This document shows, one piece after another, positions 36,570 through 54,866 of a stretch of 64,000 nucleotides of DNA; positions within the stretch are counted from its first letter, which is position 1, and every line of letters starts with the position of its first letter. The stretch is from the NCBI GenBank assembly GCA_963803145.1, contig CAWDLW010000008.1, forward strand, positions 448,001-512,000, written 5' to 3'. A model generated the notes under the pieces. The model ran no database searches. It was not told the DNA's origin and saw nothing but the letters and a program-made list of their open reading frames with translations. The position numbers and the translations under genes were made by a program. This stretch comes from Methanotrichaceae archaeon. Its GTDB lineage: Archaea; Halobacteriota; Methanosarcinia; Methanotrichales; Methanotrichaceae.

Positions 36570-36735
36570 CAATCTCACCACTTATATTTCTGGAATCTTC
36601 TTCCGGAGAAGAGTTAGGAGCAGCCCCACGGGCGTTGTAGGGCGCTAGTAAAGCCTTTAGCATTAGCCCCAGATAGGAAATGTAGTATCTTAAATTAGCT
36701 GCAGCCCCCAAACGTAAAATCAGGATGGTTCTATA
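36570..36735. repeat. Repeat A, degenerate copy 1
   Basis: TTCTTCCGGAGAAGAGTTAGGAGCAGCCCCACGGGCGTTGTAGGGCGCTAGTAAAGCC..TTAGCCCCAGA plus the shared tail. Confidence 0.75.
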
Positions 36736-36838
36736 ATATCATCTTGGATTGAATTCTCTTGAAGAACGTTATTTTGTGAATTAATAAATATTTAGGAACT
36801 AAGAGCAGAAAAATATACAATAAAAAAATTAGTGAAGC

Positions 36839-37678
36839 TTAAAGCTGCATAAATATCGCTATAGCATCATTCATCTTCTTGAGCCCAAGTAGCGCATTCA
36901 TCTTATTTATTTGTGCCTGGCTGTTAGACGGATCGATTGTTAGCGTGGCATTAAACGCCTGTATAGCATCAGCGTAATTTCCGGCTGCCATTAGAGCGAA
37001 ACCTTCAGCGTTATACGCCTGTGTATAGTTTCGATCAATCTTCAGAACCTGATCGAAGTTCTGCACTGCCTTGGCGGATTCACCTGCGGCCATAAGTGAG
37101 ACACCTTGCTTATAAAGGGCATCTTTACTCTTCGGATCAAGAGCTAGGACCTGATTGTATCTCACGATGGACTCGTTGTACCTTCCTAATTTCTGAAGAA
37201 GATTGCCCTCCCTTTGCCAATTGGCCTTATTATTTGGTGCTAGCATCGTTGTTTCGTTTGCTGCTGTATAAGCGTTGGAATAATCCTTGAGTGCATTATA
37301 ATCAGCATATAAGCCTGACCAGGCATCCGCATTGTTTTTATCGATCGTCGCGGCCTTGCTGTATGATTGCACAGATGCATTATAATTTTTCAAAGCCCTC
37401 TGAGCATCGCCCATATGTACCCAGCCATCTGTGTAGCTGGCATTTTGAGCAACTGCCTTACTAAAGTACTCAAGGGCACCTGTATAGTTGTTGGCTGCAT
37501 ACAGCTTACCTCCCTTCCAATCAAAGTAGTCTGCCTCCTGAGCAAAACAGATAGCACTCAAGATACAAAAGCACACCATTACACCTAATATTTTCAAGAT
37601 AACTCCTCCTGAACCTCCTATAGGGTCCAAGTGTTTGGATAATATTGAATGCATATTAAGCCTTCGGCTATAACTCAA
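36839..37678 (-). CDS. Secreted TPR protein
   Basis: Signal-like segment and TPR repeats; paralog of 58241 and 59046. Confidence 0.88.
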   Translation of the reverse strand: MSYSRRLNMHSILSKHLDPIGGSGGVILKILGVMVCFCILSAICFAQEADYFDWKGGKLYAANNYTGALEYFSKAVAQNASYTDGWVHMGDAQRALKNYNASVQSYSKAATIDKNNADAWSGLYADYNALKDYSNAYTAANETTMLAPNNKANWQREGNLLQKLGRYNESIVRYNQVLALDPKSKDALYKQGVSLMAAGESAKAVQNFDQVLKIDRNYTQAYNAEGFALMAAGNYADAIQAFNATLTIDPSNSQAQINKMNALLGLKKMNDAIAIFMQL

Positions 37679-37890
37679 TTGCTAACCTTATAAGCCATTA
37701 TGACCCGAGTATATTGTCAAAGTTATCCGCCTCCTGAGCTATACAGATAGCGCTCAGGAGGAAAAGCATATAATTACGCATAACATCTTTAGGACTTACC
37801 CTCTACAATTTAGCCATGTTCTTTATAGCCCCTAAGCTTAACATCAATGATATTAGCCCATTATGCAACACAGCATCCTGGAGTGAAATC

Positions 37891-38265
37891 TCACGATATA
37901 TGCCTTAGCGGTCTATTCGCTATTGTAAAACTTCGTCCATTTTCGCCGATCATTTTCAGAGCTTTAGCAGCACTTAACCGCACGTTGCTATCTTTATCTT
38001 TTGCGAGCACCTGGAGCAGTGGCATTCTAGCTTTTGTATCTACAATCTCCCCAAGAGCATCAGCAGATCCACCTCGAACTGCGCTATTATCGTTTTGGAG
38101 TGCCTGAATCAACGGATCTATTGCAGGTTTTCCAATTCCTGCGAGAGCTTTGTAGCTGCTATTCGAACATCGCTATCGTTATCCCCTAGCACCCGAATTA
38201 AAGGATCGATAGCTCTAATATCTTGTATATTCCCAAGCGAATGTGCAGCCTCCGCTCGCACTTTA
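37891..38265 (-). pseudogene. HEAT-repeat protein 3' fragment
   Basis: Homologous to about 57050-57380; frameshifted. Confidence 0.8.
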
Positions 38266-38489
38266 TTAAACAGCTGAGTTATGCTTATCTTATATCAGCT
38301 AGTTAGTTTTTCTTTGTGCCTTGCTATGAAAAACATTCGATTATCGCTATCTAGCGACCATTTTTCATTCTTCGGGCACGATTCAACCCTTACCTGAGAA
38401 TCATAGTGTTTTGTGTCTTCGTGGTGATCGTCCGTCGTTTATTTAACTGCCAAGCCAACAGCATTTCACCATTTAGCCTTGGCACAACC

Positions 38490-39233
38490 TCAAAGAGAGA
38501 AACCCTCCAGATTTATCTCATCCAACCGGACCGACCCATTGACCGCCTTGGCGCTCATCTCATATTTCCCGGATGGAAATCCCGTCATATTAACGCCAAT
38601 GTTGAAGTTGCCGTTCACGATCACCTTTTTGATCAGCGTCATGGTCAGGTTCACCCTGGAAGCATTCTCCGCAGCATCACCGAAGATTTTGATCTGATAG
38701 CCCCCAGGCGATAGCATATCGTTAGTAGTAGTCGCTGTGCCGTTACTACCTGCCTCGACCTGCGAGGTGACCCATATTCTCGTGAATTCAGGCTTAAAGA
38801 CCATGCTCGAGTTCTGATAGCTTCCCTGATCCATCTGTTCACCAATGTTCAGGTTCTTCACCTTGCTTGCAGATACTGCAAAGTTGTTGGGCTTTCCAGG
38901 AATGTAGACGCCGGGGAGAGTATAGCTATAGCCGCTTTTGCCTGGGTTTGAGGTCACATTGAAGCCCTCGATGGGAGGAATGTGGATGCCGACAAGGTCG
39001 TAGCTGTAGCTGCCCTCGAATACCGGGGTTGTATCCTGGATTGTGAAGTTTAGGAGAAGCTCGCCTGAGCCTACTCCCGAGATCCTCATCTCGCCGGGTG
39101 TGAGTCCCACGCATGAGAGCAGGATGCAAATTACTGCCAATGACCTCAGGATTGTAGGGCGCTGCCTGCTTTTCAAAGCTGTCGCTTGCCGGCTGTTGCG
39201 ATCATCTTCGTTTCGTCTCCATATTCCCTTCAA
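38490..39233 (-). CDS. Hypothetical exported protein
   Basis: Close paralog of 55832-56590; hydrophobic leader segment. Confidence 0.75.
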   Translation of the reverse strand: MKGIWRRNEDDRNSRQATALKSRQRPTILRSLAVICILLSCVGLTPGEMRISGVGSGELLLNFTIQDTTPVFEGSYSYDLVGIHIPPIEGFNVTSNPGKSGYSYTLPGVYIPGKPNNFAVSASKVKNLNIGEQMDQGSYQNSSMVFKPEFTRIWVTSQVEAGSNGTATTTNDMLSPGGYQIKIFGDAAENASRVNLTMTLIKKVIVNGNFNIGVNMTGFPSGKYEMSAKAVNGSVRLDEINLEGFSL

Positions 39234-53491: not shown

Positions 53492-53609
53492 CCTTCACCC
53501 TCCTATCAGGCACAAAGCTCATCAAAAGATCATGCCAGGTTCGATTGCCCTTAACCTTTTCCAGCTCTTCAGCTTCCCAATCTTCGAGCGTGACATGGAC
53601 GTGTTTCAT
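53481..53609 (-). CDS. Small ribbon-helix-helix/antitoxin-like protein
   Basis: MKHVHVTLEDWEAEELEKVKGNRTWHDLLMSFV; overlaps the start of the acylphosphatase-like gene. Confidence 0.6.
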   Translation of the reverse strand: MKHVHVTLEDWEAEELEKVKGNRTWHDLLMSFVPDRRVKGED

Positions 53610-54244
53610 TGTATCATAGTATGTATGATAGTATTTATAGGGCTCCTCTCTATTTCCAGTGGGTATACTCAAGAGGGGTCTGAGCCTACCAGGAAAACGA
53701 TTAAGAATCGCTCTGTGTCTCCGTGCCTCAGTGGTGAATTTCGTTTTGTCTAGCAATAGCCGAACGAACCAAGAATTGGATGCTCAAATAACAATCAACA
53801 TCCCATCGCCAAGCATACAAAGAATATTCAAGAAGTCCCGGAGCCTCCAAATTCCAACATCTCCGCCAAACCCTCTTATCACCATTCAATTCAGATTATG
53901 GCGCACTCAAATCTATAGCCCGGAATGAGCCCGCTTTTGATCATGCCTTTTCTGGATTCCTCTTCCGGATTCAGCCTATGCCTTTCGATCATCAAGCTCT
54001 CTGCCATAAGCAGGTGCTAACAAGCCTTCAGGGATTAAAAACTTACCGCTGTGTTAATTATATCAATTCCTTATTGCTGCCATTCGTCCTGGACCTTTGT
54101 TATCTCCCTACACAGCTTCAGTCCATCCCCGACAAGCTGATATGTCATCTCTCCCCTGGCAGGATGCATCTGTACATATCCAAGTAAAGCCTTTTTTACC
54201 CCATTTCCTCCTGCGGGAACTCTTCTGGCAAAGGCTCTCTCCGG

Positions 54245-54532
54245 TACATGGCGCCGATTTGCTGAGATGGGCGGCTCTGCAGATGCTCAATCAATTATGA
54301 GTTATACGAACGTATAAGCGAACATCCCGGTCTGAGCGCATACGAATACGCAAAGGTTTCCGGCTGGTCGATTGGGAGAACTCACTCCTCCATCAAAAGG
54401 CTGGAGAGTCAAGCTTATCGCCAGGCCTAAGCCGTGGCAGGAGTTCTTCACAAAGGAAGAGCTGGAAGAGATGAAACAGTCAGATTTCTGGGATGAGCTA
54501 GAGACTATAGTGACGAGCGATAAAGAGTTGTA
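54245..54532 (+). pseudogene. Degenerate paralog of the 50701 HTH gene
   Basis: HPGLSAYEYAKVSGWSIGRTHSSIKRLE ... PKPWQEFFTKEELEEM with a frameshift. Confidence 0.7.
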
Positions 54533-54659
54533 AACGGCCGATCTCTGCTCGTCTTTTATCGTCTAGATTCATCTTTTTACCTTTGTAGTGATCAGCCGTC
54601 GTTTGTTTATAATTACAGCCAGACACCCTCTTCCATATAGGCGAGAATCCTTGTCCAGT

Positions 54660-54827
54660 AAACCTTATCGCCTGCATTTCCAGAAACCTTCCCCCGAAGA
54701 GGGGTTAGGGGCAGCCCGCCCGGGCGTTTGAGTGCGCTAGAGCGCTGTTATTGTTAGCCCGAAAAGGAAGTTTAGTCTCTTGAATTAGAAGCAGCCCCAA
54801 ACGCAAAGTCAGAGCAGTTCTGGATTG
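54660..54827. repeat. Repeat A copy 10
   Basis: AACCTTATCGCC...CCTTCCCCCGAAGAGGGGTTAGGGGCAGCCCGCCCGGGCGTTTGAGTGCGCTAG...TTAGCCC plus tail. Confidence 0.92.
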
Positions 54828-54866
54828 TCCCGCTCTTACGAGTTCAATTTTAACTTGGATATGCTT

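Follow-up and report, generated by a model that had tools for sequence, protein, structure and literature searches.

A modular structured repeat of one Methanotrichaceae genus, tentatively placed among REP/BIME- or MITE-like elements, and target of an IS110-family insertion sequence

Interspersed structured repeats of the repetitive extragenic palindrome (REP) and bacterial interspersed mosaic element (BIME) type are well studied in Proteobacteria. Classical REP/BIME elements and REP doublets forming hairpins (REPINs) typically come as inverted pairs, and random insertion of MITEs (miniature inverted-repeat transposable elements) would give no co-orientation of neighbours. REP sequences are reported as targets of insertion sequences (IS) of the IS110 family (PMC1525189, 10.1101/2025.01.17.633520), and IS110/IS1111 elements as guided by a bridge or seeker RNA to REP or attC targets (PMC11208160, PMC11187229, 10.64898/2026.03.19.712850). 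For integrons, Ghaly et al. 2022 (PMC9668308) define a cluster of attC sites lacking integrases (CALIN) by at least two co-oriented sites less than 4 kb apart. Here we analyze repeat A, a structured repeat found in a 64,000-nucleotide stretch of the genome of a Methanotrichaceae archaeon (contig C8, positions 448001-512000, hereafter the window; the whole genome comprises 4.13 Mb in 51 contigs). An earlier note, made from the letters of this stretch, had read the copies of repeat A as possible boundaries of a candidate integron-like cassette array. In the literature that we searched no such repeat is described for Methanotrichaceae. We favor, at a probability of about 0.52, the reading that repeat A is a genus-specific, modular structured intergenic repeat resembling REP/BIME elements or old MITEs, which is also a target of IS110.

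Repeat-finding, MAFFT alignment and a covariance model (CM) all place ten plus-strand copies of repeat A in the window, co-oriented as the earlier note had it and within 5-8 nt of the starts given there, and the spacing of 0.5-3.6 kb was likewise found. With a CM that was trained on eight of them, the ten copies score 52.6-129.4 bits (E-values 9.5e-09 to 9e-26). Families D2, D4, D9 and D10 of the repeat-finding analysis are copies of repeat A. The copies and one remnant are given here; M1, P3, P4 and Y are the modules and hairpins described in the next paragraph.

36564..36682, plus strand: copy 1, CM 101.5 bits, the most diverged, P4 stem CTTCT/AGAAG
39225..39343, plus strand: copy 2, CM 121.7 bits
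40674..40797, plus strand: copy 3, CM 84 bits, within a 1610-bp segment absent from a population variant
41706..41843, plus strand: copy 4, CM 108.1 bits, with an 18-nt internal insertion in the alignment
42223..42324, plus strand: copy 5, left part, cut by IS110 after ...TTATTTT; CM match 42223-42339
43856..43935, plus strand: copy 5, right part, opening with CGTTTTAGCCTCAGAAG, then TATA-like; the continuation at 43856 reads CGTTTTAGCC
44601..44719, plus strand: copy 6, CM 129.4 bits, the top score of the ten
45864..45973, plus strand: copy 7, CM 79.5 bits, degenerate P3 region
49006..49122, plus strand: copy 8, CM 128.2 bits
52639..52875, plus strand: copy 9, a composite of M1 and P3, module Y and a second P3 unit; CM match 52639-52754
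54654..54773, plus strand: copy 10, CM 118.3 bits
59905..59965, plus strand: remnant with the core deleted (joint 59946/59947), left flank joined directly to ...TTAGCCCCAAATG; the core was lost between short direct repeats TTAKCCCCA

Alignment of 74 full copies with their flanks revealed a modular conserved unit of ~200-230 nt rather than the ~100-bp element first described. The 5' module, M1, consists of TCAACCTTAT, a variable 12-14 nt, CCTTCCCCC, a loop and GGGG TTAGGGG, its C4/G4 hairpin being P4. In P3 a GC-rich stem of 5 bp encloses a conserved loop of 9-10 nt (GGCGAYTGA or GGGCGTTKGA); GCTAG and then ...TTAGTTTTAGCCCCAGAAG follow. The tail, ~110 nt long, holds an AT-rich TATA-like box, GAATTATATTAG, and then ...GGTTCTGNAATGT...CTTGAAG; P3 and tail together occur one to three times in tandem, for instance at 11.3-11.7 kb of contig C15. 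Blocks such as CCTTCCCCC, GGGGTTAGGGG, GGCGAYTGA and TTAGCCCCAGAAG are near-invariant whereas the linkers vary. Module Y (a hairpin, a T-run and a GC hairpin, ...TTATTTTTTCAAGCCGCTATCCGCAGGCGGAA...) has seven copies in the genome, including those at 52727-52820 of the window, on C26 at ~58.4 kb, on C23 at ~206.1 kb and on C9, C17 and C38. It stands directly after the P3 'GCTA' in three independent copies of repeat A, among them copy 9 (52639), while three more lie within a larger repeated unit together with an inverted repeat A. The second P3 unit of copy 9, a half-unit at 52821-52875, has a different and compensated stem.

Mutual information singles out two column pairs of the alignment, both in P3. 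In 49 CM-aligned copies, 94.9% of the P3 cells are paired, against 32-70% in controls with slid partners, and 31 cells are changed on both sides compared with 12.4±2.1 in shuffles, of which none out of 500 comes up to the real alignment; two pairs carry such two-sided changes, in 10 and 20 of the 49 sequences. The stem is Watson-Crick in 585 of 650 cells when 130 distinct copies from three genomes are taken. Single-stranded DNA (ssDNA) folding of two copies on both strands was no better than shuffles (z +0.09, +0.20, -1.35 and -1.70), only local 4-5-bp helices being supported. Two helices, P1 (GGGGY/GCCCC) and P2 (CTAG/YTAG), were set aside as they lack convincing covariation, and so was the long-range pairing ATCGCC/GGCGAT of RNAalifold model R1, whose 5' side is variable genome-wide while its 3' side is fixed. 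A coding reading was also rejected: minus-strand peptides recur (…GDKVDG…), but most copies contain stops and the start is not conserved.

A search with nhmmer returned 114 matches genome-wide. Counting as independent copies those that include M1 leaves 94, a number that, like all multi-copy counts here, could include a few foreign contigs, since a contamination of 6.77% is given for the assembly. No confident open reading frame (ORF) is overlapped by any of the 94. Of these copies, 37 stand singly, while the others form 11 pairs and six clusters of at least three (3, 3, 5, 7, 7 and 10 copies); 59 of the 94 lie outside such clusters. Besides that of the window, arrays are found on C8 at 432-440 kb, on C15 at 5-21 kb and on C23 at 46-58 kb. 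The ORFs used for the intergenic tests were crude codon-usage calls made in this analysis; by these, copies lie between co-directional, convergent and divergent genes in 50, 18 and 12 cases, which matches the genome (chi-square p 0.41 by number and 0.07 by length). Orientation relative to the flanking genes is mixed in the 80 classified copies (32 opposite to both genes, 18 same/opposite, 18 same/same and 12 opposite/same), and one copy has no neighboring gene. The position downstream of a minus-strand gene is thus a property of the window and not of the genome. Two further ideas were dropped: local amplification of the arrays (within-array identity 0.705 versus 0.697 overall, with a within-array value as high in 392 of 2000 permutations) and a replichore-wide orientation bias, judged by eye from positions on contig C1 of the sister species G002 (~11 runs, ~23 units after collapsing arrays), on which we do not rely.

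The CM finds 87, 38 and 62 matches in the three genomes of a single uncultured methanogen genus within Methanotrichaceae; two more genera yield weak matches (3 and 2), and the remaining 26 of the 31 genomes compared yield none. A scan with an exact pattern of 185,579 species genomes, one genome per species and with the window's own genome left out, gave 46 stretches, all from two metagenome-assembled genomes titled Methanotrichaceae archaeon. Three contigs of JGI metagenomes carry one copy each.

Comparison with relatives, which are different species (~80% identity) and therefore too distant for exact breakpoints, indicates that copies come and go on their own. Three syntenic intergenic sites are filled by the repeat in a relative and empty here with no difference in cargo (L042 of G002 versus C48, L043 of G002 versus C24, and L032 versus C48). 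One of them, L043/C24, has a sharp left edge, at ...GAATCGTTCATCTT. Amid intergenic DNA that carries indels, an orthologous copy shows ~90% conservation, no less than the genes flanking it. In an orthologous pair in which the repeat accompanies a gene of the P190 family (treated below), M1 is kept, the P3 stem is different but compensated, and one genome has an extra P3+tail unit.

Repeat A is a specific insertion target of an IS110-family element, which in the window splits copy 5.

42325..43855, minus strand: IS110-family insertion sequence, 1531 bp
42363-43622, minus strand: IS110 transposase gene, 419 aa (Pfam DEDD_Tnp_IS110 1e-18, Transposase_20 1.9e-23)

Besides some fragments, the genome harbors seven near-identical full copies of this element (97-100% protein identity). 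Of ten left junctions, eight fall in repeat A, all at one position (directly after ...TTAGTTT; site TTAGTTT^TAGCCCC) and in one orientation, and the six readable right junctions all continue with the remainder of the repeat, CGTTTTAGCCCC. The non-coding end of the window element (43623-43855, minus strand) contains, at 43729-43740, a 10-mer, AGTTTTAGCC, that matches the target core of repeat A letter for letter. This identity fits the guide-RNA logic of the IS110 family, and the 10-mer is likely the guide segment of a bridge/seeker RNA. We also considered IS110 as a co-inherited partner of repeat A. The family is present in 32 of the 61 genomes searched, but the near-identical element (97-100%) is restricted to the window's genome and the G002 copies are at most 44% identical, so this idea was abandoned.

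Since repeat A is extragenic, lineage-specific, mosaic, hairpin-bearing and gained or lost alone, we place it with the REP/BIME- and MITE-like elements. The copies are only ~70% alike, and yet motif blocks, a compensated stem and, at an orthologous site, ~90% identity are kept, which suggests, from the sequences compared, that individual copies are under selection. The hairpin might act as ssDNA or RNA bound by a protein of the host or of an element, and could shape 3' ends, insulate transcription or offer a handle to a mobilizing enzyme. Copies would pile up in hyperplastic islands of toxin-antitoxin (TA) and accessory genes, where insertions are tolerated, and there could serve as portable homology for rearrangements; the co-orientation within arrays may be a trace of units that recombination with a resident copy brought in or duplicated.

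Several observations weigh against this reading. Of 40 neighboring pairs with members up to 5 kb apart, 32 are co-oriented (binomial p 2e-4, for pairs that are non-independent), and the unit, ~200 nt, is longer than in REP/BIME and REPIN systems, whose neighbors are inverted pairs. No terminal inverted repeats were recognized by reading the consensus ends, with no formal search for them run. A possible 7-bp duplication, TGTATTG on both sides, was seen at one site, but the empty site also has TGTATTG twice. No Y1 gene is adjacent to repeat A and neither a REP-associated tyrosine transposase (RAYT)-like nor another mobilizing enzyme is linked to it. The mean pairwise identity of ~0.70 and the star-like pattern argue that there was no recent burst. 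The P3 mismatches of the 130 copies, 23 G.T versus 17 A.C, give no transcribed-strand signal, and any function of the hairpin is putative. Finally, the syntenic region of G002 (C1:168-207 kb) has ten plus-strand copies and the same flanking genes, but the cargo modules common to both species, 70-92% identical, stand in a different order, which fits a cassette mechanism equally well or better.

A first alternative, which we judge rather unlikely, is ordinary homologous recombination among copies of repeat A and of a second repeat, D5, through loop-out and re-entry or unequal crossing-over and without a dedicated enzyme or site. Among sequencing runs, the stretch was found in four DNA runs of one sample, with one further small share, and in no RNA run; the four were mapped, as assembled contigs, on 36000-55900. 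One trustworthy structural variant emerged: contigs of two runs (X1 record 1, 859 nt, with 4 and 1 differing letters on its sides, and X3 record 15) join 40015 to 41626, with both sides near-identical.

40016..41625: segment deleted in the variant, 1610 bp, with repeat A copy 3 and the PIN/MazE pair
39999..40047, plus strand: repeat D5; other copies start at 38392, 40571, 41609, 45770, 48394, 54556 and 59855

Both breakpoints fall in register in two D5 copies with a common 28-nt identical run. D5 has ten matches in the whole genome, all on contig C8 and eight of them in the window, and is often found ~100 nt to the left of repeat A, upstream of where minus-strand genes start. Re-entry by a single crossover would yield direct, co-oriented copies, and the differing unit order between species and the opposite orientations of two neighboring arrays on the contig also speak for recombination of this kind. 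For repeat A itself, however, the mapped contigs show no trustworthy joint (the short sides measure 21-63 nt and may derive from other copies); joints with sides under ~60 nt at repeat copies and stretches without cover were not counted. Copies that are ~70% alike, with identical runs of ~10-15 nt, are poor recombination substrates, and the conserved motif blocks and the hairpin are left unexplained. A joint 39212->51380 is accounted for by a paralogous segment beyond the mapped stretch.

The reading of the earlier note, a gene capture or shuffling platform with its recombinase encoded elsewhere, comes next. In its present form it states that a recombinase acting on the P3 hairpin or the adjacent CTAG moves circles of cargo and repeat, and that the co-oriented arrays are stabilized by TA modules. 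The enzyme of such an archaeal cassette platform of a new kind would be a non-IntI recombinase, either an unrecognized protein or a DEDD/bridge-RNA enzyme. We consider this improbable. If true, it would amount to an integron analogue without an IntI-type integrase, the TA-held co-oriented arrays being a functional analogue of chromosomal integrons with an independent origin. In the window each copy has on its right a minus-strand gene whose stop adjoins the repeat; by Pfam these are TPR, UPF0150/HicB, PIN with MazE/AbrB, AF2212-like and three acylphosphatase-like genes, PIN_2 and ParE, each with a small ORF, and ORFs without a family match. The genes of the array, and examples of the P190 family elsewhere in the genome, are located as follows.

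36839..55427, minus strand: cargo region between the copies (Pfam, NCBIfam)
36839-37678, minus strand: TPR gene (Pfam)
38490-39233, minus strand: unknown gene, 247 aa, no family match
39554-39856, minus strand: UPF0150/HicB gene (Pfam)
40768-41196, minus strand: PIN gene (Pfam), paired with the next
41162-41425, minus strand: MazE-like gene (Pfam), paired with the preceding
41970-42158, minus strand: AF2212-like gene (Pfam)
43937-44461, 52898-53491 and 54867-55427, minus strand: three acylphosphatase-like genes (Pfam/NCBIfam scans)
45134-45529 and 45496-45705, minus strand: PIN_2 gene (Pfam) and small ORF
49273-49626 and 49616-49789, minus strand: ParE gene (Pfam) and small ORF
50701-51075, minus strand: MarR-like gene (Pfam)
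51374-51937 and 51938-52528, minus strand: unknown genes, no Pfam/NCBIfam family
L002:14563-15144, minus strand, and L004:12491-13075, plus strand: P190 examples, with ~19 further loci in this genome

That this cargo is diverse and TA-rich, as the earlier note had stated, was borne out by Pfam for the window genes and for other arrays. The 102 ORFs of seven further stretches rich in the repeat belong, by Pfam, most often to TA or mobile families: UPF0175 (7), PIN and DDE_3 (4 each), HicA, UPF0150, NTP_transf_2, MazE and acylphosphatase (3 each), and HepT and PemK (2 each). Genes flanking the repeat have a median length of 175 aa compared with 221 aa for the genome. P190, a family of ~190-aa proteins with ~21 loci (47-100% identity to the query), and the unknown genes of the window belong to no Pfam or NCBIfam family; their Atlas matches are unnamed clusters at 0.90-0.91 with low recognition. 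Gene families keep their side and orientation relative to the repeat, a point in favor of cassettes. At ten P190 loci repeat A lies within 170 nt past the stop, in sense orientation in nine, whereas the stops of the three acylphosphatase-like genes of the window adjoin the right end of the repeat, the opposite end from P190, and the repeat is antisense to them.

Some observations on the same genes and on other repeats of the window stand apart from this question. Two acylphosphatase-like genes have in-frame tandem repeats of 30 and 21 nt, at 53015-53164 and 55003-55105, in the region of their C-terminal coiled coil, and contigs of three runs omit 42 nt (55018->55061), which is copy-number variation of such a repeat. 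A segmental duplication links 37905-39212 to 55796-57384 with 87-90% identity and permuted module order. It holds fragments, at 37891-38261, of a HEAT-repeat gene (57013-58158), which look like pseudogene debris in the array. A repeat of ~260 bp (families D12 and D19), unrelated to repeat A, has two copies at 22091-22354 and 27954-28220, 94-96% identical and 5.9 kb apart. About 440 bp at 32852-33295 (ORF 32972-33304, plus strand) recur in G002, with 95-96% identity, at 14 places or more, against ~80% identity for syntenic genes, so this stretch looks, by sequence comparison, like a young multi-copy mobile element common to both species.

Single-strand recombinases recognize sites of this kind, hairpins that covary around a conserved loop, and module Y and the extra P3 units join right after the P3 'GCTA', each with its own compensated stem, both of which would suit a cassette platform. 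The site is nevertheless unlike that of integrons. The earlier note had already found the canonical boxes inconsistent, and a RYYYAAC/GTTRRRY pair 40-130 nt apart occurs in none of the ten window copies (40/120-nt flanks, both strands), compared with 20 of 2000 random 280-nt windows; the ssDNA folding described above, with z from +0.2 to -1.7, points the same way. The best score for IntI (TIGR02249) is 60.8 bits against a cut-off of 265, and none of three genomes of the genus exceeds it. The genome has 13 PF00589 matches, none of them in the window, in line with the absence of an integrase stated earlier, and the nearest to any array lies 4.4 kb from that on C12. The recombinase looked for at the borders of the arrays did not appear: no tyrosine recombinase lies beside the window array or its G002 counterpart, no Y1 recombinase at array borders, and a search for serine recombinases/resolvases gave no match. 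For an IS91-type Y2 transposase the search gave no match, but none in the control genomes either, and we draw nothing from it. Y1_Tnp is represented by three identical copies, in a 618-bp IS200-like element whose hairpins are unrelated to repeat A, and by one pseudogene, of IS200/IS605 type and with internal stops, at 21441-21810 of the window; the three intact copies lie elsewhere. As for a parent IS, the comparison covered IS110 and the IS200-like element, whose ends bear no relation to repeat A.

The behavior of the units is divided. Co-orientation of neighboring copies holds also in the C15 and C23 arrays, where genes point both ways, and would be expected of cassettes. The G002 array has the same flanks and shuffled content, the acylphosphatase-like and PIN_2 TA units being adjacent in both genomes but swapped in order and, in G002, bounded by copies. 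The different cargo order looked for by the earlier note is therefore there, but no fixed breakpoint at the repeat was seen in the units compared. The acylphosphatase-like unit is highly identical only from ~60 nt upstream of the start to about the stop codon, and the repeats that flank it are no more alike than random copy pairs. By hand count, ~12 of 34 block ends between the species lie within ~150 nt of a copy versus ~22% expected. In paralogous P190+repeat units the place where homology ceases varies (it lies after M1, after ...CCCCAGAA or after GAATTAT), and the sole population indel observed breaks in D5. Conserved whole cassettes running from one repeat A to the next were looked for and discarded as an idea, as P190 units share the gene ± ~50 nt only, save for two close pairs. 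Linkage disequilibrium (LD) shows no break inside the repeat; a recombination hot spot between P4 and P3 is ruled out by the linkage of columns 32/33, before P4, to P3. What survives of the platform is thus array layout, TA cargo and shuffled order, against which stand the singletons (37 of 94), the cargo-free gains and losses and the missing recombinase. Most of what the earlier note named beforehand as speaking against an integron-like array, such as copies scattered over the genome in both gene orientations and, among the units compared, no fixed breakpoint, is what we observed. Repeat A does not look like an integron attC site. Since no integron-defining feature and no fixed breakpoint were found, we file it with the interspersed structured repeats.

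Each unit could also be a small RNA gene or a cis-acting RNA with its own promoter, belonging to a multi-copy structured RNA family, a reading to which we give a low probability. The box GAATTATATTAG lies on the minus strand at a fixed distance of ~25 nt from the conserved core, and tandem units repeat box and hairpin together; by the archaeal consensus the box would be a putative promoter, and terminator readings are likewise tentative. The covariation of P3, the motif conservation at orthologous sites and a placement independent of the orientation of neighboring genes are compatible with this. Only a single short helix covaries, however, the mismatches noted above carry no strand signal, and the alifold energy is equal on both strands (-42.6). 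Rfam gave no family for repeat A at the gathering score or at E up to 10, the matches of a three-unit copy being at chance level (E 4-10). Within the window there is no Rfam family at gathering score and no tRNA or tmRNA.

That repeat A is the functionless, decaying relic of an extinct MITE, with a similarity pattern due to age only, is very improbable, for although mean identity is ~0.70, the quarter-wise pairwise identities are nearly uncorrelated (Spearman 0.05-0.23), no autonomous partner was found and truncated and core-deleted copies exist, substitutions are non-uniform, with the motif blocks nearly invariant relative to the linkers, compensatory changes keep P3 paired, and an orthologous copy is ~90% conserved amid intergenic indels.

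Repeat A combines traits that are useful together: ~100 copies, a hairpin that covaries around an invariant loop, orthologous sites at which it is conserved, and, in an archaeon, the role of landing pad for a natural IS110 element of the bridge-RNA type. It thereby offers a handle on which protein reads the hairpin, on how TA-rich hyperplastic islands arise in archaeal chromosomes, and on how an IS110 element chooses a multi-copy safe target.

Compared with integron arrays and CALINs, archaeal ones included, as PMC9668308 presents them, the locus shares co-oriented repeats less than 4 kb apart between small, mostly unrelated genes, an abundance of TA modules, the lack of an adjacent integrase as in a CALIN, and content that differs between relatives at a conserved chromosomal place. 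Its agreement with a CALIN is one of layout only. Unlike integrons it has neither R''/R' boxes (0 of 10) nor a long imperfect hairpin nor IntI in the three genomes, and it displays many singletons in either gene orientation, gains and losses free of cargo and, in the units compared, no fixed crossover point. With the bridge-RNA IS110/IS1111 elements the likeness concerns the IS in copy 5 alone and not repeat A: a DEDD and Transposase_20 protein, ~1.5 kb in length, no inverted ends, a multi-copy structured repeat as target that is entered at a single position and in a single orientation, and a 10-mer equal to the target, from which a guide RNA is inferred. With prokaryotic MITEs, as reviewed in PMC10969869, repeat A has in common that it is non-coding, 100-300 nt long and structured, that it is present or absent at orthologous intergenic sites, and that truncated and nested copies exist; it differs in that its copies are old (~70% identity) and yet conserved in their motifs. 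From the REP/BIME mosaic elements of Enterobacteria and Pseudomonas and from the REPIN-RAYT systems, the subject of PMC1525189 and 10.1101/2021.07.10.451892, it is set apart, beyond unit length and the orientation of neighbors, by the lack of a linked RAYT-type Y1 gene, by its archaeal host and by its concentration in TA islands. Like REP/BIME elements, repeat A is extragenic, lineage-specific, present in the order of a hundred copies and a target of the IS110 family, and it is a mosaic of alternative modules with a short GC-rich hairpin kept by compensation.

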